Assembly: GCF_046119375.1 (NCBI RefSeq)
Contig: NW_027362764.1
Coordinates: 501,952,001 to 502,016,000, forward strand
Direction: 5' to 3'
Length of the DNA stretch: 64,000 nucleotides
Source: Phyllobates terribilis
Taxonomy: Eukaryota
Positions 1 to 54,056 of the stretch are shown here, piece after piece. Position 1 is the first letter of the stretch, and each line of letters starts with the position of its first letter. A program made the translations under genes and the position numbers. The notes beneath the pieces were generated by a model that was given only the letters and a program-made list of their open reading frames with translations, was not told where the DNA came from and did no database searches.

Positions 1-236
1 AGCTGGGTTAAATACCAGGTGACAGACAGCAATAGGCTGAGGACGCACAAGGGGTGTGCCCACAGCAGGTACAAGAAACAGGAAGTGATCGGGCGCCGCC
101 CTTAAGCAGCAGAAACAGAGGCAAGCAGACAGCATGGAGGGAAGCCAGGCTAGCAGACTGGACTGGAGATCAAGTGCGCGCTCTTGCACAGTGGGAGATG
201 GACCACTATGCAAGGACGCCGCCAGGTATGTTGCAG
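1..236. repeat. Unidentified LTR-like sequence replacing/interrupting the distal part of the 3' LTR of the CSD element (cut by window edge)
   Basis: Similarity between the two LTR copies (offset 3604) stops abruptly at 237; 1-236 does not match 3480-3840. Confidence 0.4.
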
Positions 237-1157
237 TCACTTCTGTCAGCAATGACTGCCCAAGCCGTGCTGCGTCCACCAGGTGAGGGGCTCCGTCAAC
301 CACCAGGCAGTTCAGGAGTATGGCACAGGACCCCCTTCTATCCTTTCTCTGGCCTCTCGTGCCCCACCAGTGACCACGCTTCTGTCCGGCTGCCTCGGGC
401 CTTCTCTGGTAAAACTTGGCGCCAGTTTCCCTGACCCTATGTGGTACCTTCCTAGCGGGTGTAGCAAGGGGTCGCACCAATAAATGATCACGACCTCCGG
501 TTCTTGGCTGAGGGATGATTTACCTCCACCAACTTGGGAATCCGGTACCCTTCCACGGCCTGACCCTTCACCCGATATAACGCGGGTTTGCAACGGTTGC
601 TGTCCGTTCTGCTCTCTTAGGGTCCCTCCTACCTTCTTGTTTCTGGAGCCTTTCTACTCCTCAGTCTCTTCTCCTTCCTTCTTTCTCCTTCTCCCTTCTT
701 CTCTCTTGCCCCGGCCTTCTCTCTAGGCCTGCCTCGTGGAGCTGAGCTCAAGCTGAGCCACAGCTCCCTGCCAGTTCTCTCTGGCTGAACTACATCTCTC
801 TCTCCCACTCTCTGAACACTGACTAAAGATGGTTCCCACCTTTTATCTACTTCTCTGAGTCTGAGCTCAGGTGACCTGCACCCAATGAGCTCCTTCCTAT
901 GCTCTAGAAACCGTCCCCCACTGCTCCTTCATCACCGGGTTTTCTCCCCCCTCCCCACTCCAGCCAGGGACATGGTCAGTTGTGCCTGCAATTATATGGG
1001 AGCACCGTCGAGCTGTCCCCCGGAAATGGGGAGTGTGTATGTGTATGTGTAGCTAACTGAGCCCTGGTCCACACTCCATCCTTACCTGGGAGTGGAATAT
1101 CACACCTCTGGTTAAGGTGCAATACCCCTGTGGCAACTGAACCCTCGGGGCACCACA
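237..1157 (-). repeat. 3' LTR of CSD element (distal ~360 bp missing)
   Basis: Starts TGTGGTGCCCCGAGGG right after the PPT; colinear with 3841-4761. Confidence 0.9.
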
Positions 1158-1166
1158 TTCCCCCCC
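1158..1166 (-). promoter_or_regulatory. Polypurine tract
   Basis: GGGGGGGAA immediately 5' of LTR start TG; same form as the PPT at 29953-29960. Confidence 0.85.
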
Positions 1167-1826
1167 GGTAAACCACAGCACGTCCTCGGGCTGGAACAAA
1201 GCAAAAGACCATTCAGAAACATGCAAGTTTTAGAATGCATTCACATATAAGATTATAAACCATTATAACTCATCCCTTTATGGGAGGCAATTCTTCTCTT
1301 TCAGCAGTTATTTTAAGACTTTCTTCACATATATAAAACATTATAAAACTCTTTTCACTTTTACAATCACATCTATCACATATAAAACATTTTTCTTGTA
1401 AACATTTTTCATGTAAAACTTTTGTTAACTGGTTACAGTGCGCTTTGCGACCAGGTGTCCATCTTTCTACAAAATGCAAACTTATAAACACAAACATGAG
1501 GGACCCATTCATAAACCCTCAACGTAGGCCCTGGGGTGGCTGCAGGGCGCAGCCGATCCAGCTGCTGGACCTCGTCTTCTGCCACCTCTAACGGGTTTTT
1601 GTTCTGAGGTCAGTTGTTGTTGTGGTCTCTTATAAAACCAGTAGGGGGCACTTTAAGAAGTGCAATTATGTACAAGATTGACCGCTCCCAGTCCTCGGCT
1701 GGATAGTTCATTACTTTGGCTGCTCCCAGTCCTCAGCCGGTTTTAACTGACCCGATACCAGGTAACTCTCTGCAACAGTTCCTTCACCCTGACGGGCAAC
1801 TATGTACATTGGTACGCTGCCACTCC

Positions 1827-2639
1827 TTAGTAGCAGTGTCCTCCCTGCGCACCTTCTTCCTCCTCGCCATATTCTTCAGACCCGTCCGGGTCCTCTGGGC
1901 AACCATACTCCTGGTACCGTTCCTTCTCCACCCTCTGGACATTGAGGGCATACCACCCTTTCAGGCCTCGATGTCGGGTGTATATTACCCGATCTCCCGA
2001 GAACAACTCCCGCTTCGGGTGACCCGCTGGCAGGTGACCCTCCACATCCCTCCTGTCAACATGGATGTCTGTGGCGGTGGCAGAGTCCTGAATGAACCCC
2101 CACCCTTTCTCCTGGTGGAACTTCACCACGGTCCCAGCTGTTTTTGGACCGTGTGCTGCATGGAGGTTTCGGCGGGTGCGCGTCTTCTCCTCCGCGCTTC
2201 GGGCCTGCAGCTGCTCCCTCTTCCGGCGCCGTGCCTGCTCCTCCTTCGCAAGCTGCTCACAGATCTCCCGCCTGCAGACTGCGGCCATCCGTGTCTCCTG
2301 GGCAAACCCCATCACATCCTCCCCGGTTTGGTCCCATCCTACTTGGACCTCTTCCTCCGGGAGCTGAGAGATGGTGACTGGCTGCGGTAAGGGCAAGAGC
2401 GGAGCGAGCGGGGCCTCGGCCTTTGCGGGCAGGTTTTTCCGCAGACTGGGGTGAACCCATCCCTCTGGTACGGGGACCGGCTCTCCATCAGGTCCGGCAA
2501 GCTGGCTGTACAGGTCAGTCCCAAGGGGTGGTGGTTTCGGGACCGGGGCACACGCGGCTGGGAGGCGCCTGAGGTGGTCAGGCCTTGCGACCGGGCCTGG
2601 AGCGGGCCGCTTCCTACCGCACCCGGGGTCAGGGGGCAC
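1827..2639 (-). CDS. Pro-rich/coiled-coil protein with C-terminal cold-shock domain (nt ~1929-2141) and acidic tail
   Basis: GTVVKFHQEKGWGFIQ (RNP1-like KGWGFI)...DIHVDRRDVEG (RNP2-like)...RELFSGDRVIYT...KGWYALNV matches CSD/OB-fold spacing; preceded by a charged helix with RRRKR and followed by EEYGEEEE. Confidence 0.8.
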   Translation of the reverse strand: MPPDPGCGRKRPAPGPVARPDHLRRLPAACAPVPKPPPLGTDLYSQLAGPDGEPVPVPEGWVHPSLRKNLPAKAEAPLAPLLPLPQPVTISQLPEEEVQVGWDQTGEDVMGFAQETRMAAVCRREICEQLAKEEQARRRKREQLQARSAEEKTRTRRNLHAAHGPKTAGTVVKFHQEKGWGFIQDSATATDIHVDRRDVEGHLPAGHPKRELFSGDRVIYTRHRGLKGWYALNVQRVEKERYQEYGCPEDPDGSEEYGEEEEGAQGGHCY

Positions 2640-3361
2640 GACGGGGGGCGTGGTTCAGCGGCGATGCTTGCAGCTTGAGGCCCAGGTGTATGCGGCGGGA
2701 GCGTGGAAGCTGCAGCGGCTCCCGGGACTTCTGGCTCCACGGCGGGATCCAGGGGTAAGGCTACAGCGTCAGGGCCCGGGGCAGGGGTGTCCGCCTTACC
2801 TGCCTCTGCGGCAGCGCTGTTCTTGGCCTCCGGTCTCCTCTCTCTGTCTTTGGGGGCAGGCGCACTGCCAGGTGCTGGCAGCGTCTCTTGCTGCCGGGTC
2901 ACGACCCGCCGGGCCATCTCCTCCCTCCATCCGGCGATGACTTCCCTCTGCGCCCGGACCATCCTCCGGTCCAGCTCCTCCAGCGCTGTCCGCAGGAATT
3001 CAGGGTCTTCTGCGGGGAGCTGAGCCATCAGCTCCGTGAGGATGTACGGGGATGCCTCGGCCTGCAGCAGGCCGCTTGCCAGGGTGCTGGAGTTGACGCT
3101 CCTCTCCATCTCCGGGTGTGGTCTGGCGAGACTGATCCAAACCACACCCTGCCCCGCAGTTTTCTTCTCTTTCCGCCCCTGTTGGGGGTGGTCCCGGGGC
3201 AACCTGCTGACAATCACTCTCAGGGGCAGCCCCCCCCCCACGTTAATGGACATCTCTACAGCCGCACTCATGGCTGCTGGGGATGGGCTCCTTCTTTGGC
3301 GCCATTCTGGGACCTGGCCCACGATGGGAGGTGGCTTCTTGTTATCTTTTGGCGCGCACAT
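2339..3361 (-). CDS. Upstream ORF of CSD element at the gag position (helical N-region, Pro/Ala-rich linker); probably N-terminal half of the CSD protein
   Basis: First in-frame ATG at 3361, ~100 nt after the PBS; open for 340 codons; amphipathic segment ILTELMAQL...FLRTALEELDRRMVRAQREVIAGWREEMARRVV; overlaps the CSD ORF in the -1 frame. Confidence 0.5.
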   Translation of the reverse strand: MCAPKDNKKPPPIVGQVPEWRQRRSPSPAAMSAAVEMSINVGGGLPLRVIVSRLPRDHPQQGRKEKKTAGQGVVWISLARPHPEMERSVNSSTLASGLLQAEASPYILTELMAQLPAEDPEFLRTALEELDRRMVRAQREVIAGWREEMARRVVTRQQETLPAPGSAPAPKDRERRPEAKNSAAAEAGKADTPAPGPDAVALPLDPAVEPEVPGAAAASTLPPHTPGPQAASIAAEPRPPSCPLTPGAVGSGPLQARSQGLTTSGASQPRVPRSRNHHPLGLTCTASLPDLMESRSPYQRDGFTPVCGKTCPQRPRPRSLRSCPYRSQSPSLSSRRKRSK

Positions 3362-3457
3362 TATGGCGTCTGTTCTTCTGGTGCGGGCGCCATTTTCAAT
3401 ACAGTGAAACAGTCTCTTTTCAGGCACGCAATACCCGCTGGTGGTGGGTTGGTCACG

Positions 3458-3475
3458 ATCCTGCCGACTACGCCA
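3458..3475 (-). promoter_or_regulatory. Primer binding site, tRNA-Ser
   Basis: TGGCGTAGTCGGCAGGAT, complementary to the 3' 18 nt of vertebrate tRNA-Ser (ATCCTGCCGACTACGCCA), 4 nt after the LTR end. Confidence 0.9.
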
Positions 3476-3479
3476 AAGC

Positions 3480-4761
3480 TGACTCGCCCCCTGGGCCGTG
3501 GGGCACCTGGAACCGGGTTTCTGTGCGATGCTGGGGGTAGTAGTGGCAACCCGATCCTGTGGCTCAGGGTGGTCAGACCAAATGCTGTGCAGTCTATTTA
3601 TAGATTAGTGAATGTCCGACTACGCCACCCCTGGATTGCGGTCAGGGATGACTGCCGCTGCAAGGCAGACCGCTGAGGCTGGTGTTAGTGTGCAGCACAG
3701 GGATAGGATAACTCCCCACGGGAAGAGTGTAGCCTCAGGGCAATGTAGGTGGATGCTGGGGGTGATGGTGCAGGCGCAGCATAAATCACACAGAGTCCAA
3801 TGGTGCAGTTCAGGCCTTTTACTCACAGTTGATATCCAAATCACTTCTGTCAGCAATGACTGCCCAAGCCGTGCTGCGTCCACCAGGTGAGGGGCTCGGT
3901 CAACCCACAGGCAGTTCAGGAGTATGGCACAGGACCCCCTTCTATCCTTTCTCTGGCCTCTCGTGCCCCACCAGCGACCACGCTTCTGTCCGGCTGCCTC
4001 AGGCCTTCTCTGGTAAAACTTGGCGCCAGTTTCGCTGACCCTATGTGGTGCCTTCCTAGCAGGTGTAGCAAGGGGTCGCACCAATAAATGATCATGACCT
4101 CCGATTCTTGGCTGAGGGATGATTTACCTCCACCAACTTGGGAATCCGGTACCCTTCCACGGCCTGACCCTTCACCCGATATAACGAGGGTTTGCAACGG
4201 TTGCTGTCCGTTCTGCTCTCTTAGGGTCCCTCCTGCCTTCTTGTTTCTGGAGCCTTTCTACTCCTCTGTCTCTTCTCCTTCCTTCTTTCTCCTTCTCCCT
4301 TCTTCTCTCTTTCCCCGGCCTTCTCTCTAGGCCTGCCTCGTGGAGCTGAGCTCAAGCTGAGCCACAGCTCCCTGCCAGCTCTCTCTGGCTGAATTACTTC
4401 TCTCTCTCCCACTCTCTGAACACTGACTAAAGATGGCTCCCACCTTTTATCTACTTCTCTGCGTCTGAGCTCAGGTGACCTGCACCCAATGAGCTCCTTC
4501 CTATGCTCCAGAAACCATCCCCTACTGCTCCTACATCACTGGGTTCTCTCCCCCCTCCCCACTCCAGCCAGTGACATGGTCAGTTGTGCCTGCAATTATA
4601 TGGGAGCACCGTCGAGCTGTCCCCCGGAAATGGGGAGTGTGTATGTGTGTGTGCAGCTAAGTGAGCCCTGGTCCACACTCCATCCTTACCTGGGAGTGGA
4701 ATATCACACCTCTGGTTAAGGTGCAATACCCCTGTGGCAACCGAACCCTCGGGGCGCCACA
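3480..4761 (-). repeat. 5' LTR of CSD element (1282 bp)
   Basis: TG...CA termini, followed by the PBS, direct repeat of 237-1157. Confidence 0.9.
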
Positions 4762-4816
4762 CATACATGCATAAACACATTTGAAACACAAAAATAAATA
4801 TAAACAGACATCAAAC

Positions 4817-8375: not shown

Positions 8376-9997
8376 CAGTACAGACCAAAAGTTTGGACAC
8401 ACCTTCTCATTTAAAGAATTTTCTGTATTTTCATAACTATGAAAATTGTACATTCACACTGAAGACATCAAAATTATGAATTAACACATGTGGAATTATA
8501 TACTTAACAAAAAAGTGTGAAACAACTGAAAATATGTCTTATAGTCTAGGTTCTTCAAAGTAGCAACCTTTTGCTTTGATGACTGCTTTGCACACTCTTG
8601 GCATTCTCTTGATGAGCTTCAAGAGGTAGTCACTGGAAATGGTTTTCACTTCACAGGTGTGCCCTGTCAGGTTTAATAAGTGGGATTTCTTGCCTTATAA
8701 ATGGGGTTGGGACCATCAGTTGTGTTGTGCAGAAGTCTGGTGGATACACAGCTGATAGTCCTACTGAATAAACTGTTAGAATTTGTATTATGGCAAGAAA
8801 AAAGCAGCTAAGTAAAGAAAAATGAGTGGCCATCATTACTTTAAGAAATGAAGGTCAGTCAGTGCGAAAAATTGGGAAAACTTTGAAAGTGTCCCCAAGT
8901 GCAGTTGCAAAAACCATCAAGCGCTACAAAGAAACTGCCTCACATGAGGACCGCCCCAGGAAAGGAAGACCAAGAGTCACCTCTGCTTCTGAAGATAAGT
9001 TTATCCGAGTCATCAGCCTCAGAAATCGCAGGTTAACAGCAGCTCAGATTAGAGACCAGGTCAATGCCACACAGAGTTCTAGCAGCAGACACATCTCTTC
9101 AACAACTGTTAAGAGGAGACTTTGTGCAGCTGGCCTTCATGGTAAAATAGCTGCTAGGAAACCACGGTTAAGGACAGGCAACAAGCAGAAGAGACTTGTT
9201 TTGGCTAAAGAACACAAGGAATGGACATTAGACCAGTGGAAATCTGTGCTTTGGTCTGATGAGTCCAATTTTGAGATCTTTGGTTCCAACCACCGTGTCT
9301 TTGTGCGACGCAGAAAAGGTGAACGGATGGACTCAACATGCCTGGTTCCCACCGTGAAGCATGGAGGAGAAGGTGTGCTGGTGTGGGGGTGCATTACTGG
9401 TGACACTGTTGGGGATTTATTCAAAATTGAAGGCATACTGAACCAGCATGGTTAGCACAGCATCTTGCAGAGGCATGCTATTCCATCCGGTTTGCGTTCA
9501 GTTGGACCATCATTTATTTTTCAACAGGACAATGACCCCAAACACACCTCCTGGCTGTGAAAGGGCTATTTAACCAAGAAGGAGAGTGATGGGGTGCTAC
9601 CCCAGATGACCTGGCCTCCACAGTCACCAGACCTGAACCCAGTCGAGATGGTTTGGGGAGAGCTGGACCGCAGAGTGAAGGTAAAAGGGCCAACAAGTGC
9701 TAAGCATCTCAGGGAACTCCTTCAAGATTGTTAGAAGACCATTTCCGGTGACTACCTCTTGAAGCTCATCAAGAGAATGCCAAGAGTGTGCAAAGCAGTC
9801 ATCAAAGCAAAAGGTGGCTACTTTGAAGAACCTAGAATATAAGACATATTTTCAGTTGTTTCACACTTTTTTGTTAAGTATATAATTCCACATTCATAGT
9901 TTTGATGCCTTCAGTGTGAATGTACAATTTTCAAAGTCATGAAAATACAGAAAAATCTTTAAATGAGAAGGTGTGTCCAAACTTTTGGTCTGTACTG
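8376..9997 (+). mobile_element. Tc1-like DNA transposon (long TIRs), inactivated
   Basis: TA|CAGTACAGACCAAAAGTTTGGACACACC ... GGTGTGTCCAAACTTTTGGTCTGTACTG|TA with ~200-bp TIRs. Confidence 0.95.
8790..9842 (+). pseudogene. Tc1 DD34E transposase with several premature stops
   Basis: MARKKQLSKEK*..., GRPR, VLWSDES, DNDPKH, WPPQSPDLNPVE; in-frame stops at 8823, 9453 and later. Confidence 0.9.
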
Positions 9998-15499: not shown

Positions 15500-17325
15500 A
15501 GTAGATACTCTCGTTGGATGCTGAGAAAGCATTCCATAGAGTCTCCTGGCACGCCATATATGATTCTCTTAAAAAGCTTGGGGTAGGGGTCTAGGGGACC
15601 CTTTTATAGCCAAAATCACGGCCCTGTATCACAATACGTCACCTAGGCTGAAGATAAATGGAACTGTAGCACCGAGGGCTCGGTTGCTACAGACGTATTG
15701 CACCTCACCCAGAGGTGTGATATCTCACTCTCAGATAAGGATGGAGTGTGGATCAGGACCCGATACCTGCATGCATTACACCACATTGCTGTGGGGCAGG
15801 GCGACCAATATGCCCCTGAGATGGGCACGACAGTCCCTGTCCCTGGCTGGAGTGGGGGGAGGGAACACTGAGGAAGGGGAACCCTGCAGTGCAGGAGCAG
15901 GGAGGAAGCAGTTCCTGGGTGCATTGAGAAGGGAGTATAAAAGGTGGGCACCATCTTAGTTCAGTGCAGAGAAGTCTGAGCAGAAGTGGCAGGGAGCAGG
16001 GGCTCTGCATGAGCTCTGCTCCGGAGGCGGGCCTAGTAACAGAGGCCCAGGCCTGCAAGAGGGAGAAGGAAGGAAGAGGAGCGGAGAAGGCTCCAGGAAC
16101 GAGGAATGAAGGGATCCCAGGGGTGCGGACGGGCGAGTCGCCACCGCACGCCCGAATCCACCTGCGTGGAGGGGTCAGGCCAAAGGGGGAGACCGGTCCC
16201 CGAACTAGTGGAGGCAGGAAACGACCCTCAGCTAGAAACCGGAGGCTCTGACATTTTATGTGGCGCAGCCCCTTGCTCCACCCGCTAGGAAGGCACCACA
16301 TAGGGTCAGGGAAACTGGCGCCAAGTTTACCAAGAGGAGGCCCGAGGCAGCCGGACAGAAGTGTTGGTAAGAAAGGCCAGACAAAGGACACACAAAGGGG
16401 GTCCTGTGAAGCGCTCCAAAGTTATCTGGGAGTTGTCTGAGCCCCTCACCTGGTGAGCACAGTACGACGTGGGCAGCCGTTACCTGCAGACGTGGTCTGG
16501 ATAATAAGAACTGTGAGTAAAGGCCCTGAACTGCATCACTGACTCCGTGTCGTTACTGCTGCTGCCCTGCACCATCACCCCCATCCTCCGCATACACTGC
16601 CCTGAGGCTATACTCCTCCCGTGGGGAGTTATGCTACGCTCTGCTGCACCCACAACACCAGCCTCAGCGGTCTGCCCTGGAGCGGCGGTTCACTCTGACC
16701 GCAATCCACGGGTGGCGTAGTCGGACATTTAAACATCAAAACCACATAAATAGTTCCGCCACTGGTTTGACCGCCCTGAGCCACGGAACCGGATCGCCGC
16801 CACGAAGACTACAACCACCAGCATCCACCAAAAAGGGTCCGGCTCCGGGTGTCCCAAGGCCCAGGGGGTGCGTCAGAACATTTTCATCACCTTTCACAAT
16901 CACCAATGGGACAAGGCAGGGATGTCCTCTGTCCCCTCTCTTATACATCCTAGTGACGGAGCACCTGCTCTCATCAATTCGCCATAACCCCAATATTAGG
17001 TGGATTGAGGTGGGAGGCACCGAGTACAAGTGCTCTCTATTTGCTGATGATGTCCTAGTATATATCACTCAATCACATATATCCATCCCTGCTGTTATGG
17101 CTGAAATAGATCACTTTGTTACATGGTAAAATTTTAAAATCAATGCAGCGAAGTCTGAGGCCCTCGATGTCTCCCTCCCTAAATCCATATAGGATTCCAT
17201 CCAGTCCAACTTTCCCTTTGCCTGGCCCTCACAGGGTATCAAATACTTAGGAATTCCTATTCATAGAGACCTCTCCCATCTATGTTATCTTAATTTTGGG
17301 CCCTTTATTGAACAATTCCATACAG
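15500..17325 (+). mobile_element. L1-clade LINE ORF2 RT fragment (split by solo LTR)
   Basis: LDAEKAFHRVSW, GTRQGCPLSPLL, LFADDVL, INAAKSE, IKYLGI; stops present; no 3' end or polyA. Confidence 0.9.
15665..16875 (+). mobile_element. Solo LTR related to the CSD-element LTR
   Basis: TGTAGCACCGAGGG...GGGGGTGCGTCA with 4-bp TSD GAAC (15661-15664, 16876-16879); 5' end resembles the reverse complement of 4640-4761. Confidence 0.92.
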
Positions 17326-20300
17326 ACCACGGTTGGCAAGTTGGAACTGTGAGATTCACTACGTGCACCACTGGTATTTTGTGGAAAAGCACATGTAAGA
17401 TTCTGCAACAGTCTCTGCTGATACTCCTGCATGCGTGCATCCCTTTCTATGGCAGGAATAATTTCTGCAAATTTACTTTTGTACCGGGGATCTAACAGTG
17501 TGGCAACCCAGTAGTCAGGATTATTTCTAATTCTCACAATTCGAGGGTCATGTTGCAGGTAGTGCAGCAAGAAGGCACTCATGTGTGTTGCGCATCCAGG
17601 AGCACCAAGTCCCTGTTGTGTTGGTGGCGAGGTAACAATCATGCTTCCTTCCTCTGTCCTCTCCCCCCAACCTCGCACAACAGAAATGTGATCAAGGTCT
17701 CCCTCATCTGATGAGTCTTCCATCAGTTCGTCCTCCACTTCTTCCTGGGCTCCTGCACCTTCCTCACTAGTTTGGCTGCTACCATGCGCCCTGGTAAAAT
17801 CATCTCCCCCACCCTCACATGCCTGCCGCCCTGGTGCTGCCGACCGTCTGGACCTTGCAGATGTTAGCCCTTCCGCATACAACTCCTCCTCCTCTACTTC
17901 CTCCACCTCCTCTTGTGCCACCACCTGACTCCGAATTCTGTTTAACATGTGCTCCAGCATGTAAATCACCGGAATAGTCATGCTGATAATGGCATCGTCA
18001 GCACTAAACATCTTCGTCGCCATTTCAAAACTGTGCAGGAGGGTGCATAGGTCCCGGGTAGGCACATCGCATTTTAGCCGGTGAAGTGGCAGGCCCAACG
18101 ACTTCTGTAGAGATGTAAGTCGCTGAGCTGCGGGATGCGAACGGCGGAAGTGAGCACACAGCGACCGTGCCCTCTGCAGAAGGCCATCTAGTCTGGGATA
18201 GTGGGCTAAAAATTGCTGGACAACCAGGTTCAACACGTGAGCCATACAAGGCACGTGTGTGACATTGCCCCGGCGAAGGGCCGCACCCAGGTTTGCAGCA
18301 TTGTCGCACACGGCCTTCCCTGGTTTCAGGTCCAGTGGAGACAACCATTCATGAAATTGGTTCTCCAGAGCTGACCACAACTCCTCAGCTGTGTGACTCA
18401 CATTTCCCAGACATTTCAATGTAAAAACCGCCTGATGACGTTGAGCCCTACTGCCAGCATAGTAAGGAGGTGTGCAGGATCCCTTCTGCGCAGTTAGAAA
18501 GATTGTGGCATGACCAGACAGGCTTTGGGTGCAGGTGGAAGACCGAGAGGAGGTTGAGGAGGCAGAAGCAGTGGAGGAAAAATGACATAAAGAGGATTGA
18601 CGCACAACTCGTGGGGACGGCAAGACTTGGACAGCAGCCCCTTGTCCTGCTGTCACCATAGTTACCCAGTGCCCAGTCAGCGACATGTAACGCCCCTGTC
18701 CATGCCTACTCGTCCAAGTGTCTGTGGTGAAATGCACCCTGTCACACAGAGAGTTTCTCAAAGAAGCGGTGATGTTGTGTGCGACATGCTGGTGGAGCGC
18801 AGGCACACCTTTCTTTGAGAAGTAGTGCCGACTGGGCATCTGGTACTGGGGCACTGCGACGGACATAAGGTCTCGAAAATCCTCTGTGTCCACCAGGCGG
18901 AAAGGCAGCATTTCTGTAGCCAAGAGCTTGCAGATGGTGAAATTCAACCTCTTAGCTTTCTCATGGCTAGGAGGAAATGGTCTTTTACTTGTCCACATCT
19001 GAGGGACCGAGGGCTGGCTATTGTGCTTAGACGGGGTTGATAAGGGTGTCCCCGGCAAACTGCCGGTCTGTGAGGAAGATGCAGGCGGACATGTTAGGTT
19101 GCCTTGATCCAAAGGTGGTGCTATCGATGTCGGACAGTGCTCAAGACCAGCTGGTGTTACCACCTCCAAAGAAAATGATGACCTGCCAATCACGCTGGCT
19201 GTTGCGGGTAAAGAGGTGGCAGGTCTGCGCCCCAAAACAGGTGTGACTGCTGTCCCCCCAGTCACAGAGGATGAAGAGGCCGCGGATGCACAAGATATGG
19301 CAGACGGTGGTTGGCCCGGCCGGCTAGACCGCATTGTATCACACTGAGCTTCCCACTGCAACTTATGCTTCATGTCCATGTGCCGGTTCATGCATGACGT
19401 ACTCAAACTATGTATTTTTTGGCCTCTACTTAGCTTTTGCTGACAAATGTTACAGATAACACGAGTTGGGTCATCTTTATCGATCTGAAAAAATGCCCAG
19501 GCTATGCAAGGCTTAGCACCCATGCGACCTGAAGAGCCACCACGACTTGTGGTGAGAGGCAGAGTTGTGTTTGAGGATGCAGTTGTTGACGTGCTTCCAG
19601 TACTACGTCTCTGTCCAGGAAGGCGCAACCTGACCTCGTCGTCACTAGCATCTTCCTCCACCTCCTCTGCTGACCTCATCTCTTGGCTGACTGTGGGTTG
19701 ACAGTAAGTGGGATCTCCGACCTCATCATCATCACCCTGTGCGTTATCACACCCGTCGTCCTCAGAGCCAACCTGTTCCTGCCCTGACAAAAAACTAAAG
19801 TTGTCGCTCCAATCAGGTATTTGAGTCTTATCATCGTCTTCCTCATTGTCTCCACCAACAGGAGTTACAGTTTGGGAATGAGGGTCTACATTATGGTCAG
19901 AACCTTCTGCGTCTGGTCCTGGATCCGACTCATAAAGATTCTGGGCATCAGTGCAGATCATTTCCTCGTCTGGATTCACAGAAGCGCTGGAGTCGACCTC
20001 TGATTCCCAGGCTATAGTATGAGTAAACAGCTCTGCAGACTCAACCATCTGTTCTACCTCATACTCAGACGGGCAGCTGGAGATTTGGGAGCTGTGAGGA
20101 AGCAAGTGCGATTTGGGTGACACCTTTGAGGACTGGAGTATTTGTGATGTTGAAGTTGATGTGGAGGAGAGCCCACTTAAAGGAGCACTTGATATCCGTT
20201 GAAGCACCTGCTGTTTTTGTGCCTCATCTGGAATTTGTAGCGATTGGCGTGGCCGTAAGAAAGGGATCTTATCACATTGTCCGCTAAAAGAAGTAGACAT

Positions 20301-20417
20301 TTTAGTTTGGCTGGAAGATGGTCTTTCTTCTGCACCTACCCCACGGACACAACCTTTTTTCCCCTTCCCAACACGCCTATTCCCCTTTCCACTAGCAGCA
20401 GGCCGTTTTCCACTCAT
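17280..20417 (-). CDS. hAT transposase (BED zinc finger + DDE core), internally deleted and C-terminally truncated
   Basis: WAFF..CNIC..SRG..STSCMNRHMDMKH BED finger; FTTDTWTS, CDNAANL, CMAHVLNLVV, LKCDVPTR, ATLLDPRYK; the WNST motif and the dimerization domain are absent; last residues derive from L1 sequence. Confidence 0.92.
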   Translation of the reverse strand: MSGKRPAASGKGNRRVGKGKKGCVRGVGAEERPSSSQTKMSTSFSGQCDKIPFLRPRQSLQIPDEAQKQQVLQRISSAPLSGLSSTSTSTSQILQSSKVSPKSHLLPHSSQISSCPSEYEVEQMVESAELFTHTIAWESEVDSSASVNPDEEMICTDAQNLYESDPGPDAEGSDHNVDPHSQTVTPVGGDNEEDDDKTQIPDWSDNFSFLSGQEQVGSEDDGCDNAQGDDDEVGDPTYCQPTVSQEMRSAEEVEEDASDDEVRLRLPGQRRSTGSTSTTASSNTTLPLTTSRGGSSGRMGAKPCIAWAFFQIDKDDPTRVICNICQQKLSRGQKIHSLSTSCMNRHMDMKHKLQWEAQCDTMRSSRPGQPPSAISCASAASSSSVTGGTAVTPVLGRRPATSLPATASVIGRSSFSLEVVTPAGLEHCPTSIAPPLDQGNLTCPPASSSQTGSLPGTPLSTPSKHNSQPSVPQMWTSKRPFPPSHEKAKRLNFTICKLLATEMLPFRLVDTEDFRDLMSVAVPQYQMPSRHYFSKKGVPALHQHVAHNITASLRNSLCDRVHFTTDTWTSRHGQGRYMSLTGHWVTMVTAGQGAAVQVLPSPRVVRQSSLCHFSSTASASSTSSRSSTCTQSLSGHATIFLTAQKGSCTPPYYAGSRAQRHQAVFTLKCLGNVSHTAEELWSALENQFHEWLSPLDLKPGKAVCDNAANLGAALRRGNVTHVPCMAHVLNLVVQQFLAHYPRLDGLLQRARSLCAHFRRSHPAAQRLTSLQKSLGLPLHRLKCDVPTRDLCTLLHSFEMATKMFSADDAIISMTIPVIYMLEHMLNRIRSQVVAQEEVEEVEEEELYAEGLTSARSRRSAAPGRQACEGGGDDFTRAHGSSQTSEEGAGAQEEVEDELMEDSSDEGDLDHISVVRGWGERTEEGSMIVTSPPTQQGLGAPGCATHMSAFLLHYLQHDPRIVRIRNNPDYWVATLLDPRYKSKFAEIIPAIERDARMQEYQQRLLQNLTCAFPQNTSGARSESHSSNLPTVVCMELFNKGPKIKIT

Positions 20418-20530
20418 TTTGGTGGTTAACTAATTCACAACTCTGGAGTTGTTTGCACAAAAAAACAATGGATGGTAACCGAGCAGAGCTGAGTGGCCAA
20501 ACTGTGGTATTAGGCCAAAACTATTGGCTG

Positions 20531-28810: not shown

Positions 28811-30411
28811 AGGTGACTTAGAAGGTCTAATGTGACCAAGCTTGTCTGTATGTATTCCTCCAAGGTCTTTCTCTCAGGGACAGTAAGATTAAATAAGCGA
28901 CTCTTGGGAAGAGTTGCTCCAGGGACAAACTCAATAGTGCAATTGACGCGCCCCCTGGGCCTGTGCTGTGCAGGGGGATACCCGGAGCCGGATCGCTGGG
29001 GGTTGTAGTTCTTCGTGGCGGTGACCCGGTCCGTGCCCAGGGTGGTCAAACCAGTGGCAGTCTATTGGTGTTATAAGTGTCCGACTACGCCACCCGTGGA
29101 TTGCGGTCAGTGGGGACCACCGCTGCGCTGCCGACCGCTGAGGCTGATGTTGGTTGCGCAGCCGAGTATGGGATAACTCCCCACGGGAGGAGTATTGCCT
29201 CAGGGCAGCTAATGTGAGAGATGATGGGAGTGATGGTGTGAGGGTCCCAGTGCTAATGGTGCTGGAGCGGCAAGGAATCACAGAGACGTGAGGTGCAGTT
29301 CAGGGTCTTTACTGATGGTACAAGGCAGACCCTCCCGGGAGTACTGGCTAGTATAAGGGGCCTGGTCAGTCTGCGAGCAAGCAGGAGTTCCCCTGGCCAG
29401 GTGGAGTTGTAGGCCTCCCCGTTAATCTGCACTCTTCCTGGCTACCTTGCTGTCAGCGGTTACAAGTAGCCCACGTCCCTGAGTATACCGTGTGGTGCTC
29501 ACCCGTATGGCTGGTGACCTGGGGCCTTCTGTTAGCCTCCGCTCCTCGATGGCGGCGCTGGTCCCTTCTTTGTGACTGAGCCTCCGGGCTTCTATGGCCA
29601 GAGGACCTGGAATCCCCTGCCGGCTGGTTTCTGCTGCTGGGTGTAGATCAGTCCCCACAGCCTCGGACTCCTGTGTCCGGTTTTAGTGTCCTTGTCCAGG
29701 GCGAGCTCTGCTCAGCTCCAGCCCCTGGACTTCTGCTACTGCTCCTACAGAGCTCCTAGTTCTTCCTTTCCCTCTCCAGGCTCTGACTGCTCTAATCCCG
29801 CCCCAGACCCAGTTTAAAAGGGCAGATTCCTCCCCTCCCAGGTCTGGGCGGACCGTGTTGCATGTTTAGGGATCCTGACCAGAGAAACCTCCCACTTGCT
29901 CTCAGACATAATATCTCTATTACTGCGGCAACCAGACCCCTGGGGTGTCGCATTCCCCCCTAGTAAATTTTAGTACTCCGGGACTAAACACATTTTTTAA
30001 AGAAACATAAATACAAGGTATAACAATAACAAGACAACATATTTACAAGAAGCTTTAGTCTGTAGAGGTCACGGCGTTTCCGTGACCGGGTGTCCATATC
30101 ACCCAAGGTGAAGTTTTGGCACAGAATAGGGGACCTGTCCAAAGCAAACCCCTTGACTTGTCCTTGGGCGTGGCTGCAAGGGTAGACTAACTACTTTGGG
30201 CCGCAAGGAGGCCACGCCAGACAGGTTTTCTCTTCCGCGGCCGTCTTCACAAGAGGCACCAAGGTGCAACTATCTACAATACTGTTCCGGTTATCCAGTG
30301 TCCATAACCTGTTAGTCCAAATAAATCTGCAGGGTAACTGAGAAACATAATTAGTAACAGGCAACAAACATAAACCATAAACAGTCAACTTCACAGTGCA
30401 CTGGTTTAGAT

Positions 30412-33400
30412 TCTCCAGCGAGCGGGCATCTGACCTCTAGTGACTCTAGTGGACCTACGGAGCTCACTAACTGGTTCTGCACTACAGGGTGTAGGAGGTG
30501 TTATGGGCAAGCTGGGCAGCTTTCTGCGCACTCTTTGGCTCAGTAGGGGCACAGCAGGCTCACTACTAGCAGAGGGTTGATCCTCCTGTACTGCTGGTGT
30601 GGACTCTTCTGCCTCTTGGGCCGGCTACTCTTCCAGCTCTACCGGTTCCTCTGTAGGCACTTGCGGGGCTGGCTGGAGAAAGGTGAGGACGGGTACCACG
30701 ACAGCGCCGTTTACTTGTGTCCAAGACCGGGGGAAGTCTCCGAGTACGGTACTGATCATTTCTTCCCTTTCCTCTGCGGGTTGAGGGTTTTCTTGATCTT
30801 CTTCAGGGCTTTGCAGCTGCTCGGGACACTTCTTCAGGTGGTCTCTGGAGACAATGGCTGTGGTTTCTCCTCCATCCTTACTGATTACGCAGATTTTTGG
30901 GTTCTCATGGCTTGATGGCAGTACGGTGTACGGGTCCTTCTCCCACTGGTCGTCCAACTTGTGGAGCCGCCTTTTCCTCTTCAAGACCTGCTCTCCAGGT
31001 ACCAGGGGAACAGCGGGAGCATACTGGTTATAAGCCTTCTCTTGCCTTTCTCTAGCTTGAGACAGACTTCGCTCGACGCTCTCCTGTACTTTCCGATACT
31101 GCTGCTGCCGTTCTGTATCCCAGTCTGCCTCTGGCGAGGTGTCCTCAGGCGTCAGGACTCCCATATCCAGGTCAATAGGCAGCTTACCAGGTCTTGCTCT
31201 CATTAGGTAAGCAGTTGGTGGAACCTACAGGGATGTGGTTATACAGGTCCACCAGATCGGGCAGTTTATCAGACCACAGACTGCGTTCTTCCAGGGGCAA
31301 TGTTTTTAGCAGATCTATCACCACCTGGTTCATCTTCTCGCAGAGTCCATTGGTTTGAGGGTGATAGGGCGTTGTTCTTATCTTCTTGCAGCCATACAGG
31401 TTGCAGAACTCCTGGAAGACCTCCGCTTCAAAGGCTGGTCCTTGGTCTGTCAGCACTTGGTCCGGGTACCCGTGTGGATGGCAGAAGTGCTGCTGGAAGG
31501 CTCTAGCTGCTGTTTGAGCCATTAAGTCCTTGACCGGGACCACCACCAGGAACCGGGAGTAATGATCTACGATTGTGAGGGCGTAGACATACCCAGATCT
31601 GCTTGGAGCCAGTTTCACATGGTCCAGGGCTACCAGTTCCAGTGGCTGTCTGGTGATGATGGGCTGCAGGGGAGTCTTCTGGCTGGCACGGTCTTTTCTT
31701 CTCAGGTGGCACGGGCCACAGTCTCTGCACCACCTCTCGATGGCTCCTCTCATGCCTACCCAGTAGAACCGTTCACGCAACAAGAACTCCAGCTTCTTCC
31801 ATCCGAAGTGTCCTGCTCCGTTGTGGTATGCCTCCAGAACCATAGCCGCGTCTCGTCTTGGGACCACTACCTGCCAGGTCAACTCATGTGTTCGAGAGTT
31901 AACCATTCTCCGGCACAGCTTCTCCCTGTAGAGGAACAGCTTACTTTTCTCCTTCCACAGTTGCTTGGTCTCCTCCGGAGCATCTGGGTCAAGACGGGCA
32001 TCGGCCTGGGTCAGCATTTCCTTCACCAAATGGACTGCGGGATCACTGTCTTGCGTCTCCGCCCAGTTGTAGTGGGGCAAGGGATTGAACGTCACGGAGC
32101 GCCTGTCCTTCACACGGTGGGAATACAGGGTAATCCCATGACGGTGGAACGCAGGGAGCTCAACTTCTTCCAGATCTTCTGGATCTTCCCCTACGTCCGG
32201 TAAGTTCGGCATTCTAGACAGGGCATCCGCGTTGGCATTTGAACGTCCTGCCCGGTATTTGATGGTGAATTCAAAGTTGGACAGGCGGGCCATCCATCTC
32301 TGTTCCAGGGCACCGAGCCTTGCAGTGTCCAGGTGTGTCAACGGGTTGTTATCCGTGTACACGGTGAATTTGGAGGAGGCAAGGTAATGCTTGAAACGTT
32401 CAGTCACTGCCCACACTACTGCCAGGAACTCCAGCTTGAATGAGCTATAATTCTCAGGGTTCCTCTCCGTGGGCCGTAGCTTTCGGCTGGCGTAAGCGAT
32501 TACCCGTTCTTTCCCTTGCTGGATCTGGGACAGTACGGCTCCTAGCCCGATGTTGCTTGCGTCCGTGTGGAGGATAAAGGGCTGGCTGTAGTCTGGATAT
32601 GCCAGGATTTCATCCCCCGTGAGGGCCATCTTCAGCTGGCAAAAGGACTCTCTTCCAGCTTTTCCCACCTGAAGGGCGGCTTCTGGTTTTTGGCTTTCCG
32701 AGATTGACCTATCAGGAGTTCCTGCATAGGGGCTGCCATTTTGGTGAAACCGGGAATGAATCTTCGGTAGTAGCCTACCAACCCGAGGAACTGCCGCACT
32801 TCCTTTATGCTGGAGGGTCTTGGCCAGTCCTTAATTACGGTGATCTTATCAGGGTCGGGAGCCACTCCGTCAGCACTCACCACGTGTCCCAGGTATTGCA
32901 CCTTTGGTTTCAGGAGGTGACACTTGGAGGGTTTCACCTTTAGGCCGTAGTTTGCCAGAGCTTCGAACACTTCTGCCAGGTGTTTCAGGTGGTCCTCGTA
33001 GGTCTTGGAATAGACGATGACATCGTCCAGGTATAACAGGACCGTCTCGAAGTTCCGGTGTCCCAGACAGCATTCCATCAACCGTTGGAAGGTTCCTGGT
33101 GCGTTGCAGAGCCCGAACGGCATACAATTGAATTCGCTGAGACCCATCGGGGTGGTGAATGCGGTCTTCTCCCGGTCCGCCTCTGCTACAGGAACCTGCC
33201 AGTACCCGCTAGTGAGATCCAAAGTAGAGAAGAAGTTAGCAGATTTTAATGCAGCTAAGGACTCTTCTATCCTTGGTAACGGGTACGCATCTTTGTGTGT
33301 GATACGGTTGACCTTCCTGTAGTCTACACACATTCTCATGGTGTTGTCTTTCTTTTTCACTAAGACTAGTGGAGCTGCCCAGGGGCTACAGCTGTCCCTG

Positions 33401-34533
33401 ATTACCCCAGCCTCCTTCATGTCTCTAAGCATCCCCTTGGCATGTTGGTAGTGTGCCGGGGGTACGGGTCGGTATCTCTCCTTTATGGGAGGATGGTCTC
33501 CTGTGGGGATGTGGTGTTCTACCCCCTTTACTCGCCCGAAGTCTAGCGGGTGTTTACTAAACACTCTCTCGTACTCTCGAACCACCCGATAGACTCCCTG
33601 TTTCTGGTGTGAGGGAGTGGAGTCAGTACCCAAATGCAGTTGCTGACACCAGTCCTCCATTGGTTTCTTAGAGCCGTTACCTTCCTCTGGTTGAGATGGA
33701 GGCAAGGTTTCCACGGCCTGTACAGAATTCTGGTTTATGGTGAACAATTTGGCTAGCGTGGCATACCGGGGCAGGTGTACGTCTCTCTCCCCGATATTTA
33801 TGATGCGAACGGGCACCCTCCCATGGCGTACATCGACCACCCCCCGTGCTGTCAAAATGGTGGGCCTACTGTCTGAGTAGACGGGTTCTACCATTGCTTG
33901 GTAGTCTCTACCTCTTAGACCAATAGCTGCCCGGCACCAAATCATCATCTCACTTTTTGGGGGCATGGCAATAGGGAACGGGTCACACATTCTCACGCTA
34001 CCTATCTCACCACCAGATAGTTCCACCTGTTGCCGCTTCATCAGTGCCCGGATCTCTTTTTGGAGCACACGCTGCTGGCCGGAACTGGCGTTCTTGGCAA
34101 CCTGCTGTAAAATGAGAATCACCTCTGCAAGACAATTTTCAATCACATTAGTTCCCAAGGTTATTCTAGGGTGACTCTCATGACGGTCTATGTCCACTAT
34201 AATCAGTCCTTGTGCCGCCAGTTCGACTTTACCGATCTTAATGGTCACCTCTTTGAATCCCACCTGCGGCACGGGCTGACCATTGCTTGTGATGATACTC
34301 AGGTCGTCATCTGGGTAGCGGGTTATGTCCGAGTCATTCCAGTACTGCTTAAAGAGCACGTACGGGATGGTGGTCACCTGTGACCCAGTGTCTAGTAGGG
34401 CACTCATAGGAATGCCATCCAGTACCACAGGCAAGATTGGACGTCCCCCTACGTATTTATCACGCCAGTTCGATGGGCCTGATGATCTTATGCCTGGGGG
34501 TTGGCCCTCTACCCCAGGTTGTGCCCGTTTAAA
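30412..34533 (-). pseudogene. pol: Pol (PR-RT-RH-IN) broken by frameshifts near 32640 and 31200 and a late stop
   Basis: LLDTGSQVT, CVDYRK, YLDDVIVYS, DASNIGLG, HNGAGH..C..C, LDHV/DHYSRF, LRRSTR tail; spread over ORFs 32632-34653, 31184-32668 and 30625-31203. Confidence 0.93.
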
Positions 34534-35480
34534 TGACAGTACCTTGCCACATGTCCGGGTTGATTGCAGCGGCGGCAGATGGGTCGTCCATCCTCGTTGT
34601 ATCTGTCGCTGGGTCTTCCTCTGGCCGGTGGGGTCCTCCTCAGTCGGCGCCACGGGACGTCCTCCGGTCCGGATGCCAGCTGGATCTTTCCTGGAGAAGA
34701 GACCTGTAAAGACTGCACAGTTCTGGTTAGCGCGGCAACGCTCTTAGTCAGCTCTTGGACCTGATGGTGCAGGTCTGTAGCCGGGTCACGGTTTAAAGCC
34801 TGCGCATCAGCTCCCACAGGCTCTGCAGACAAGGGCGCCGTCCCCTGGTGGTAAGTGATAGCAGGGCGCCTGTGGGTCACAGCGCCACCTGGTGCCGGTT
34901 CTCGGAGCACCCGGATGGCTCTGTCCTTGAACTGTGCAAAGTCCAGGTCAGGGTCCTGTAAGGCCATTGCCCGCAACTGGGTTCGGTGGGCATTGCACAG
35001 TAGACCCTCAATAAATTGTTCAGTCAACAGCTTATCTTCATTTCCCACGCTGTCAGGGTCTGCCTGCTTAATGGCTCTCAGGGCCTCTTGTAGGTTTAGA
35101 GCATAGTCTCTTATACTCTCATGTGCCCGTTGTTTGCACCCATAAAATCTTAGTTTTATTTCGGCTGAGGTGCGGGTGTCAAATGTGTCTTTCAGCCGGG
35201 CTAGTATCTCTCTGACAGTACTCTTCCTCCCAGGTGGCCAGGACTTTACCTCCCTTTGGGCTGCCCCGATTAATTGGGCCACCAGGATGCTCACTTTTTG
35301 CTCTTCTGTGAGGGGGTACACCTGGAAGAGGCTATCCAGTCTTTCTCTAAAGTCATTTAGGGTATGTGACTCCCCTGAGTACTGGGGTAGCCAGGCTGCC
35401 CCCGGGATTTAGGGCATGGTGAATGGCATGACTGTTGCAGCGGTGGCTGTGGCAATGGAGCTCCCCTCGGTGTCCGGCAT
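34509..35480 (-). pseudogene. gag: Gag with CCHC knuckle, premature TAA at 35409-35411
   Basis: ATG 35480 MPDTEGSS...; FYGCKQRAHESIRDYALNLQ; CRRCNQPGHVARYC; the homolog at 61520 has TAT at the stop position. Confidence 0.92.
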
Positions 35481-36901
35481 CCTCCTCCCCCCTAGTGGAC
35501 CGTGGCCTACCTTGCGATGCTCTTCTTCCGTAGGCCGCGGCTCCGCAGTCGATCGTCGGGGTTGAGGACCTGGCGTCGCGCTCTGATGACGTCAGCGTCG
35601 CTCTTCCTCCCTTCCAGGACCTTGCGCAGCGTCACTGTGTGGGGCGGAGCTTCGGATCCCGCGCGCTTTCGGCGTCCACGCCCCCCCTTCTTCCTGCTTG
35701 GCGTCCCGAAGATGGCGTCCGATGGCGGGAAGCAGCTGCGGATGGCGGGAAGAAGGCAGAAGACAGCGGGAAACGGTCCAAGATGGCGTCTAATGGCGGT
35801 AAACGGCTCCGGACGGCGGGAAACTTCACCACAGGTAAGTATAAAAGTCTCTTTTTCAGGCACGCAGTACCCGGTGGTTGCGGGCACGAAATCCTGCCGC
35901 CCCCTGGGCCTGTGCTGTGCAGGGGGATACCCGGAGCCGGATCGCTGGGGGTTGTAGTTCTCCGTGGCGGTGACCCGGTCCGTGCCCAGGGTGGTCAAAC
36001 CAGTGGCAGTCTATTGGTGTTATAAGTGTCCGACTACGCCACCCGTGGATTGCGGTCAGTGGGGACCGCCGCTGCGCTGCCGACCGCTGAGGCTGATGTT
36101 GGTTGCGCAGCCGAGTATGGGATAACTCCCCACGGGAGGAGTATTGCCTCAGGGCAGCTAATGTGAGAGATGATGGGAGTGATGGTGTGAGGGTCCCAGT
36201 GCTAATGGTGCTGGAGCGGCAAGGAATCACAGAGATGTGAGGTGCAGTTCAGGGTCTTTACTGGTGGTACAAGGCAGACCCTCCCGGGAGTACTGGCTAG
36301 TATAAGGGGCCTGGTCAGTCTGTGAGCAAGCAGGAGTTCCCCTGGCCAGGTGGAGTTGTAGGCCTCCCCGTTAATCTGCACTCTTCCTGGCTACCTTGCT
36401 GTCAGCGGTTACAAGTAGCCCACGTCCCTGAGTATACCGTGTGGTGCTCACCCGTATGGCTGGTGACCTGGGGCCTTCTGTTAGCCTCCGCTCCTCGATG
36501 GCGGCGCTGGTCCCTTCTTTGTGACTGAGCCTCCGGGCTTCTATGGCCAGAGGACCTGGAATCCCCTGCCGGCTGGTTTCTGCTGCTGGGTGTAGATCAG
36601 TCCCCACAGCCTCGGACTCCTGTGTCCGGTTTTAGTGTCCTTGTCCAGGGCGAGCTCTGCTCAGCTCCAGCCCCTGGACTTCTGCTACTGCTCCTACAGA
36701 GCTCCTAGTTCTTCCTTTCCCTCTCCAGGCTCTGACTGCTCTAATCCCGCCCCAGACCCAGTTTAAAAGGGCAGATTCCTCCCCTCCCAGGTCTGGGCGG
36801 ACCGTGTTGCATGTTTAGGGATCCTGACCAGAGAAACCTCCCACTTGCTCTCAGACATAATATCTCTATTACTGCGGCAACCAGACCCCTGGGGTGTCGC
36901 A

Positions 36902-37412
36902 CAATCATAGTCCCTATGAGGAGGCAAAACTTGCGACTCCTCCTCAGAAAAAAACTTCCAAAAATCCTGAATAGGTATAGGTAATTCCCCTCTTTCCACA
37001 GCAGCACTGCGACCGTTACAACATCTATCATAACACTTAGGACTCCAAGACTTAATTTCATTGGTAGACCAGTCCAGTACAGGATTGTGCAATTTTAAGC
37101 AAGGTAACCCCAAAACCACTGGAGCAGGCAAATTATTTAATACCGCCAAATCCAAATTCTCTTGGTGAATACCATTAATGGTGAGGGGAAATTCAAAAAC
37201 CTTGTGAGTAATACATTTCAAGGGAGAGCCATCAACAGCAACCACAGAAATAGGAGATGACAAAAGTTTGGATTCTAATTTAAATTTTTCCAAAAAACCC
37301 TCATCAATCACATTGAGTGTAGAACCACAATCCATAAATACCCGAAATTCAATCAACTCCTCCTGGAATGAGGTGCTTCCAGAAAAAAATACTCCTTTTG
37401 AGTTTAAACACG
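36902..37412 (-). CDS. pol: Chromovirus protease region of pol (upstream of the nested insertion)
   Basis: [41 protein letters not shown]. Confidence 0.88.
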
Positions 37413-54000: not shown

Positions 54001-54056
54001 CTTGTTTACGCTCTGCAGGAGTATTTCTTTCTGGGAGTACTACTCTGTAGGGAGAT

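Follow-up and report, generated by a model that had tools for sequence, protein, structure and literature searches.

Can an LTR retrotransposon that has neither gag nor pol be maintained with a single gene for an RNA-binding protein, and what would that protein do for it? The question is raised by a 64,000-nucleotide stretch of the frog Phyllobates terribilis (assembly GCF_046119375.1, contig NW_027362764.1, positions 501,952,001 to 502,016,000 of the forward strand), which we analysed as a whole and call the window. The original prediction, made from the sequence of the window, described at 237-4761 a long terminal repeat (LTR) element whose gag and pol had been replaced by a protein with a cold-shock domain (CSD), and proposed a non-autonomous, possibly amplified family. 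The window copy is an old, decayed member of a gag-less, pol-less LTR retrotransposon family. The family is multi-copy and keeps the CSD as predicted, and the variants shared among its copies show purifying selection on the CSD and on two helices along the replicating lineages.

An LTR element without gag and pol

The window copy is encoded on the minus strand. Its two direct repeats (237-1157 and 3841-4761) were 96.6% identical, and the paired TG...CA LTRs were thus recovered, although position 237 is not the LTR end. The full LTR has 1,282 bp, and the 3' LTR is cut in two by a TG...CA insertion of about 2.0 kb with a 5-bp duplication; its other 366 bp, which are 94.8% identical, fall beyond the window on its upstream side, at L031:7854-8219. 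The insertion (window 1-235 plus L031:8220-10000) contains internal tandem repeats and is likely a solo LTR of another family. The copy has its own target-site duplication, CATA, on both flanks. The predicted 18-nt primer-binding site (PBS) of the tRNA-Ser type and the polypurine tract (PPT) were both located (Table 1). The interior comprises 2,322 bp (1158-3479). As the original prediction had it for protease, reverse transcriptase and integrase, neither interior frame had a Pfam match to the gag, protease, reverse transcriptase, RNase H or integrase families, and neither matched the Gypsy proteins of the window itself.

At two genomic loci (L164 and L167; 1500 regions, contig C1), the complement of the PBS is adjoined by a sequence resembling the 3' half of a tRNA, including CCA and a long variable arm; from its sequence, this half is likely a read-through copy of the primer tRNA made in reverse transcription. 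A 21-mer pattern for such sites had 37 matches genome-wide. We take the long variable arm to indicate tRNA-Ser; ARAGORN left the primer tRNA without a name.

The single gene and its protein

Two overlapping frames of the window (2342-3604 and 1830-2654) correspond to one continuous frame in the relatives, with 430-610 codons where it is intact. This frame has about 510 codons from the first ATG and 427 from the second, which has the stronger context. The first 80-83 codons were under weak constraint (ratio of nonsynonymous to synonymous change, omega, 0.53-0.74), so the true start codon is uncertain.

The CSD is the C-terminal portion of this frame. The charged helix before it and the acidic tail after it, both described in the original prediction, were present in the model, but the frame is much longer than described and is broken near 2544 in the window copy. 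AlphaFold2 gave a layout of N-terminal helix (residues 36-75), disordered Pro/Ala linker, 41-residue charged helix, five-strand barrel and disordered acidic tail. When residues 18-80 were modelled as two chains, an antiparallel homodimer was predicted with a score of 0.54, against 0.00 for the best of three controls. Of the solved pairs used for calibration, 21 of 30 attained the mark for this score, compared with 0 of 23 single chains (17/29 and 0/30 for eukaryotes). The runs agreed in at least 18% of contacts, with a predicted local distance difference test (pLDDT) of at least 59. These models support the prediction that the N-terminal helix self-associates as an antiparallel dimer.

Long frames on the opposite strand were rejected as a gene; the longest reached at most 299 codons in the relatives, and the frame varied in seven of eight, one being unscored. 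Coverage in four sequencing runs (of guessed type, contigs only) was much higher over the LTR than over the open reading frame (ORF) and weighs neither way on expression.

Families, copy number and range

With the C-terminal query, all 150 scored genome matches were at 78-100%, and the Pfam search of the genome revealed further families besides that of the window. The window's family (F1) has LTR pairs of 93.7-97.4% identity (13 copies). Its sister family F2 is young, with an LTR of 1.2 kb and an interior of 2.5 kb. The third family (F3) has an unrelated LTR of 1.03 kb with the same PBS, LTR pairs of 96-99.9% identity and a CSD about 25% identical to that of the window. The CSD was the only Pfam family in the proteins of F1, F2 and F3, and a viral fold library likewise matched the CSD alone. 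Shorter and more divergent kinds are also present, one with a different PBS. In the short kind (L121, L120, L092, L060, L073 and L075) the frame begins at the CSD itself and the PBS differs, presumably matching another tRNA-Ser isoacceptor; the interior of L121 has 1.4 kb.

Exact CSD 18-mers, whose counts are lower bounds, occurred 275 times for F1, 15,400 times for F2 and 279 times for F3, with 0 for the reversed controls; the element is thus not a single copy. From F2 we sampled the first 40 matches on contig C1, chosen by position. Two LTRs were found in 37 of the 40 (median identity 99.9%, six pairs at 100%), the PBS in 37, a frame of more than 500 codons in 34 and a matching 4-bp duplication in 26. 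None of the 40 carried gag or pol inside the element, the two matches obtained falling in flanking DNA. Exact 4-bp duplications also flanked 10/14 F1 copies, 8/8 F2 copies of another set and 4/6 F3 copies. The ORFs of the 40 sampled F2 copies differ by a median of 14%, yet their LTR pairs are 99.9% identical, so many F2 lineages have been active at once.

A profile search of 1.84 billion protein representatives separated single-CSD proteins with 76-117 bits per domain from all other CSDs, which scored at most 50.5. Seven of the nine such proteins looked up belonged to Phyllobates, Ranitomeya, Anomaloglossus and Bufo (annotated as 'Y-box-binding protein 2-A-like'). The other frog proteins were found by the full profile search only, whereas word-based protein searches gave 1, 1 and 2 matches. 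The CSDs of these frog gene models interleave with lineages of the Phyllobates terribilis genome, so the clade may be older than the divergence of these frog families, and we infer that the models lie in LTR elements. Two gene models (P0001 and P0038) fuse the element CSD to unrelated downstream sequence, transposase-like or astacin-like, and are likely annotation chimeras.

Several families also occur as tandem LTR-interior-LTR-interior arrays with a spacing of 3.1-3.8 kb (L040, L096, L118-L119, L234 and L235). One F1 copy recurs every 180-200 kb or so in a large segmental tandem array (L143-L163; C337 and C12:198.8-201.3 Mb).

Selection on the reading frame

For the selection analysis, variants were classed against the commonest codon of each column, so that the counts are of variants and not of events. 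The F1-type set retained 60 of 88 rows after removal of near-duplicates. Among F1 singletons, the CSD had an omega of 1.02 (confidence interval 0.64-1.64), and 37 stops were observed versus 31 expected. Among the variants shared by F1 copies, omega was 0.29 (0.20-0.39) for the CSD, 0.45 for the N-terminal helix, 0.42 for the charged-helix region and 0.84 for the linker, with 11 stops versus 44.5 expected. In the 40 F2 copies, the shared variants gave 0.13 (0.06-0.23), 0.30, 0.34 and 0.65 for the same four regions, and 5 stops versus 57.9 expected. The F2 singletons had an overall omega of 0.58, probably because rare active lineages were sampled once.

Since singletons are neutral and shared variants are purified, selection maintains the protein during replication, and dead copies lose it by decay. 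The substitutions of shared lineages are therefore under purifying selection, and the neutral pattern across copies that would have told against the predicted family was not obtained. A pairwise dN/dS comparison of 26 copies was set aside as biased toward intact frames, and the variant-class test was used instead. A function of the gene for the element is much better established than the particular step at which it acts.

Fold, origin and binding face of the cold-shock domain

The predicted CSD was confirmed by Pfam, as the window domain matched PF00313 with 35-39.6 bits (cut-off 27); the F3 domain scored 21.8 bits, below the cut-off. Modelled alone, the domain had a pLDDT of 83.5 and a root-mean-square deviation of 1.7 A to CspA, and it also matched the folds of YBX1, YBX2 and CRHSP-24. 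The C-terminal part gave only bacterial Csp clusters in the ESM Atlas (0.84-0.87); the N-terminal part gave no result there.

The domain is about 30% identical to YBX1. Against PDB sequences, the profile of the element CSDs ranked YBX1/YBX2 at 56-57 bits with no gaps over 72 columns, whereas the other CSDs were lower (bacterial Csp at most 43 bits, CARHSP1 22, LIN28 19-20). The profile of the Bufo member likewise ranked YBX2 first. In 27 of 28 element CSDs, the loop that follows RNP2 is 18-19 residues long; it has 18 residues in 9 of the 11 Y-box-like domains, compared with 14-15 in 24 of 40 others. In a tree of 84 CSDs, for which bootstrap convergence was incomplete, all 28 element-type rows formed one clade (99/81), separate from the Y-box-like and CSDE1 rows. 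A CSDE1-type copy (L097-L098, C1:734.44 Mb; intronless, interrupted and partly duplicated) and a decayed YBX-type copy (L071) served as host outgroups, and both retrocopy types fell outside the element clade. The host YBX gene was not recovered from the genome, where only the one decayed copy was found. By Pfam and sequence check, the basic/acidic C-terminal domain or repeats of Y-box proteins are absent from the element proteins. Taken from these sequence comparisons, the most likely source of the element CSD is a host Y-box gene, and the element protein would be a derivative of a Y-box protein and not a member of YBX1-3.

The original prediction had RNP1 kept and RNP2 altered. The RNP1 aromatics are indeed kept, in 25/28 and 27/28 clade members. 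The IHVD change of RNP2 is peculiar to the window's subfamily, and the F/Y site of RNP2 is kept in 27/28; the losses that extend across the clade are those of the W65- and H87-equivalents. An aromatic was gained in beta-5, at the site equivalent to E121/Q59, in 26/28, and Arg follows RNP2 in 22/28 and 21/28. The stacking surface thus has three aromatics kept, two lost and one gained, with residue roles that we assume from the YB-1 and CspB structures. The face is predicted to be a remodelled, not a destroyed, surface for binding single-stranded nucleic acid. The deepest-branching element-type CSD (L093:3727-4623 and L122:4704-5291; few copies, one 40-kb region) retains the RNP2 His.

A candidate helper in the window

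The window also holds an autonomous Gypsy element, A, whose LTRs are 99.5% identical and whose family is active, young and abundant. All 131 scored gag matches of its family had 97-100% identity, and one 18-mer of A had 4,633 exact matches. Between A and the F1/F2 elements, the LTR end, the 4-nt spacer, the PBS and the bases that open the leader are near-identical, and the PPT has the same form. U5 and about 175 nt of leader are some 70-77% alike (72-77% for the U5 part of the window's 5' LTR, 3480-4761), and the interiors are not in common. These signals make the Gypsy A family a likely helper that would mobilise the satellite.

No autonomous element carrying the CSD as an extra ORF was seen in the output listed for the fetched regions of 8-10 kb. 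The pol matches in these regions belong to neighbouring elements, with the possible exception of a chromoviral pol 2.4 kb upstream at L131. Two loci (L228 and L238) join an F2-type leader to a helper-type interior, one of them internally deleted, and are possible satellite-helper recombinants.

Other mobile elements occupy 17283-20429, 8826-9452, 26222-28873, 36766-37470, 50942-51814, 53149-57123 and 60079-64000. From their motifs, we take these to include hAT-like and Tc1-like transposases, a GIY-YIG/Penelope-like fragment, two chromodomain-type Gypsy copies (one interrupted by A) and presumably a second, inverted copy of A.

Table 1. Features of the cold-shock-domain element and related features of the window
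Feature	Position	Strand	Remarks
End of the ~2.0-kb TG...CA insertion inside the 3' LTR	1..235	.	Duplication GTCAC
3' LTR, first 921 bp	237..1157	-	Other 366 bp at L031:7854-8219
Polypurine tract	1158..1166	-	Abuts the 3' LTR; form as in helper
Acidic tail and stop codon	1827..1931	-	
Cold-shock domain, Y-box type	1932..2138	-	Pfam, fold, PDB profile ranking, tree, loop length
Long helix of charged residues (E/R/K), immediately ahead of the CSD	2169..2291	-	Model helix 274-314, pLDDT 77-94 by block
Approximate frame break of the window copy	2544..2544	-	Relatives unbroken
ORF, 5' part	2545..3361	-	First ATG 3361; second ATG, strong context, 3109
N-terminal helix, then Pro/Ala-rich linker	~2870-3058 (helix)	-	
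Primer-binding site, 18 nt, tRNA-Ser type	3458..3475	-	4 nt past the LTR end
5' LTR, 1,282 bp, TG...CA	3480..4761	-	Ends placed from target duplications and an alignment to 19 relatives
Second PBS-like motif within U5	3614..3627	-	Also in helper LTRs
Target-site duplication CATA, 4 bp	4762..4765	+	Partner upstream of the window, adjoins L031:7854
Solo LTR of related subfamily, 69%	15669..16876	+	
Autonomous Gypsy A, not part of the element	28949..36901	-	PNMA-type Gag with CCHC, protease, reverse transcriptase, RNase H, integrase

What the protein may do for the element

Somewhat better than an even chance, in our estimate, is that the protein acts as a cis-preferring RNA-binding adaptor or chaperone, which would raise the share of element RNA in helper packaging and reverse transcription. 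Element RNA would be translated, and the protein would load preferentially on the RNA that encoded it. Dimers of the N-terminal helix would then make a multivalent ribonucleoprotein, and the protein would stabilise and remodel the RNA, which would compete for helper Gag-Pol particles. Priming by tRNA-Ser, reverse transcription and integration would be carried out by helper enzymes. The cis preference would be leaky, because CSD-deleted copies integrate too. The identity of the LTR pairs, together with the 34 intact frames in 40 F2 copies, fits a benefit in cis. Since the ORF protein is not Gag-derived, the nucleocapsid substitute considered in the original prediction can mean only an add-on to the helper particle. 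According to the excerpts at hand, host YB-1 supports particle production of human immunodeficiency virus, murine leukaemia virus and mouse mammary tumour virus in an RNA-dependent manner (PMC6040738).

More tentatively, and a little short of an even chance, the families would form a delta-antigen-like satellite clade of hyloid frogs that is old and still exploding. Without gag or pol, its captured, Y-box-derived, self-dimerising protein would load its own RNA into Gypsy particles, outcompete the helper and add to giant genomes.

Several observations tell against the cis-preferring adaptor. The identity of the helper is drawn from shared signals only, and F3, with its unrelated LTR, may use another helper. 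The ORF protein showed no similarity to the helper Gag (hhalign probability 0.2), and one of the three dimer runs of the N-terminal helix scored 0.02. The CSD tree leaves the sister group of the element clade open, LIN28 and CARHSP1 rows not being in it. On the binding face, the W65-equivalent aromatic is found in only 3/28 members and the H87-equivalent His in only 2/28, losses that could make RNA binding weak or altered. The remaining points come from copies without the CSD: at least nine loci (12 with tandem units) of the first 80 leader matches lack the charged helix and the CSD, and eight of these nine had a scored LTR pair of 99.8-100% identity, and two copies have a junction in common. 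Such young copies indicate that an element can do without a CSD of its own, which may come in trans; that 11-15% are deleted points to a degree of rescue in trans. A Gag origin of the N-terminal helix was considered separately and rejected for want of a match to the helper Gag, except perhaps for a very remote ancestry.

The CSD-deleted copies were obtained with an F2 leader 18-mer, which had 14,614 matches. From the first 80, we fetched 20 loci seemingly without the CSD 18-mer. Nine had a variant or broken CSD region, two had helper-type interiors and nine were deleted for 470-650 bp spanning the charged helix and the CSD (L222, L223, L225, L231, L233-L236 and L240). Three additional leader matches were tandem units of two deleted loci. 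The upstream frame of the N-terminal helix is still open in the deleted copies, and seven of the nine deletion junctions had 4-13 nt of microhomology. Placed on a tree together with 37 CSD-bearing copies, the nine account for 8 changes, a number as low as in 176 of 500 shuffles. This fits recurrent template-switch deletion with little radiation of the deleted forms, which are possible defective-interfering derivatives; with so sparse a sample, an eventual extinction of deleted lineages could not have been shown.

Among the alternatives, protection or unmasking of element RNA in the germline before packaging survives best, although we consider it unlikely. The protein would counteract masking by host Y-box proteins, through competition, or guard the RNA against small-RNA silencing or decay, with no role in particles. 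Y-box proteins mask mRNA in oocytes, which together with the likely Y-box origin of the CSD speaks for this possibility, and it predicts the same selection pattern as the cis-preferring adaptor. Stabilisation of retroviral RNA by YB-1, described in the excerpts of PMC6040738, points the same way. However, the element proteins showed neither the C-terminal repeats of Y-box proteins nor any other regulatory part of host origin, and the selected, predicted dimer helix with its long helical spacer suggests a structural adaptor.

A mainly trans action appears improbable. The product would then either boost the helper and every satellite as a common chaperone or act as a repressor that keeps helper RNA out of packaging. 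The young CSD-deleted copies, about 11-15% of the first 80 leader matches, and the excess of the satellite 18-mer count over that of the helper subfamily (15,400 versus 4,633) are compatible with it, but if the product were free to all, cheaters without a frame should come to prevail. In fact, the frame is intact in 34 of the 40 CSD-bearing copies, an omega of 0.13-0.29 holds for the CSD in many lineages and the deleted copies do not cluster.

Neutral cargo, whether a processed pseudogene or a fragment transduced from the host, or else a benefit of translation as such and not of the protein, is very improbable. In its favour, old copies have neutral singletons and the frame of the window copy is shifted, and occasional CSD capture is known from bird endogenous retroviruses in the part of PMC12287698 available. 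Against this stand the domain-specific selection (0.13-0.29 in the CSD versus 0.65-0.84 in the linker) and the retention of the CSD across families with unrelated LTRs and flanks. The low identity to YBX1, the lack of any other host domain, the separate clade and the position of the host CSDE1- and YBX-type retrocopies outside it also set the gene apart from an ordinary processed pseudogene of a host CSD gene, an outcome that the original prediction had named against itself. Host selection on a domesticated locus that is the source of the copies is the least credible explanation, for despite gene models with this CSD in four frog genera, the copies are dispersed with their own target duplications, their LTRs are 99-100% identical in many divergent active lineages, and change after insertion is neutral.

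Comparison with known systems

The element has the marks of a non-autonomous LTR retrotransposon, namely LTRs with target-site duplications, a PBS and a PPT, no gag or pol, and a compatible autonomous family in the same genome. Neither the 40 F2 copies nor the window interior contains the gag and protease-reverse transcriptase-RNase H-integrase set of autonomous Gypsy/Ty3 elements. Terminal-repeat retrotransposons in miniature (TRIMs) are non-autonomous LTR elements with an anatomy like that of large retrotransposon derivatives (LARDs). In both, the interior is without a functional coding region, whereas the element has one long frame under purifying selection. Mammalian apparent LTR retrotransposons (MaLRs) are of the gag-only type, with a gag-derived ORF; here the CSD is the sole Pfam family and the helper Gag is not matched. 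As described in the excerpts of PMC6431247, LARDs and retrozymes resemble the element in having two LTRs, a PBS and a PPT, in lacking replication genes and in being moved in trans, but their interiors are non-coding or unselected, and the gene of the element is under domain-specific purifying selection.

Among frog elements, Xenopus 1a11, lambda-olt 2-1 as well as xretpos(L) are likewise LTR elements with an ORF and without pol in the excerpts of PMC4585706. There, 1a11 encodes a Gag-like protein, unlike the CSD without Gag similarity, a distinction made by description with the sequences uncompared. Their ORF copies are in the tens and the authors took the elements to be immobile, whereas F2 has at least 15,400 copies, young in the sample. 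In birds, 46 endogenous retroviruses with captured CSDs have been reported, and the authors suggested a benefit from the repeated capture (PMC12287698). These are also LTR retroelements carrying a host cold-shock domain, but they are reverse transcriptase-bearing retroviruses with sporadic, independent captures at variable positions, and the section available reports neither a selection test nor a CSD-centred family, both of which apply here.

With YBX1/YBX2, the element CSD has in common the fold, the gapless 72-column alignment and the long loop (18-19 residues versus 14-15 in most others). It differs in the roughly 30% identity, the lost W65 and H87 equivalents, the new beta-5 aromatic, the absence of C-terminal repeats and the presence of a predicted dimer helix. 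Like the element protein, hepatitis delta antigen and ORF1p of LINE-1 join a coiled-coil or dimer helix to an RNA-binding part and serve their own RNA, and delta is a one-gene satellite of a helper. Their replication systems differ, and no sequence or fold match to the element protein was seen.

No description of such a satellite family was found in the full-text papers searched, in agreement with the original prediction; subscription papers, Repbase and Dfam lay outside this scope, so the family is possibly catalogued without note of its gene. The excerpts of PMC6431247, PMC12822217 and PMC6278860 contain no mention of cold shock, and those of PMC7540406 and PMC13583293 concern other matters. 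We conclude that this family of non-autonomous LTR elements is genuine and amplified, is under selection and has active sister families.

Significance

Non-autonomous LTR elements are thought to parasitise their helpers by RNA signals alone. A selected, host-derived RNA-binding gene, together with an 18-mer count more than three times that of the helper subfamily, points to a packaging win based on protein. The natural CSD-deleted copies are controls that make cis preference and the conflict between helper and satellite testable. The families also give population-level support for a Y-box function that benefits retroelements, for which the prior basis was host YB-1 aiding retroviruses and the sporadic captures by bird endogenous retroviruses. 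For frog annotation, gene models named 'Y-box-binding protein 2-A-like' or 'CSD domain-containing' are likely transposon ORFs. For the genome itself, 15,400 copies of about 5 kb amount to some 77 Mb, a measurable part of its 10.6 Gb.

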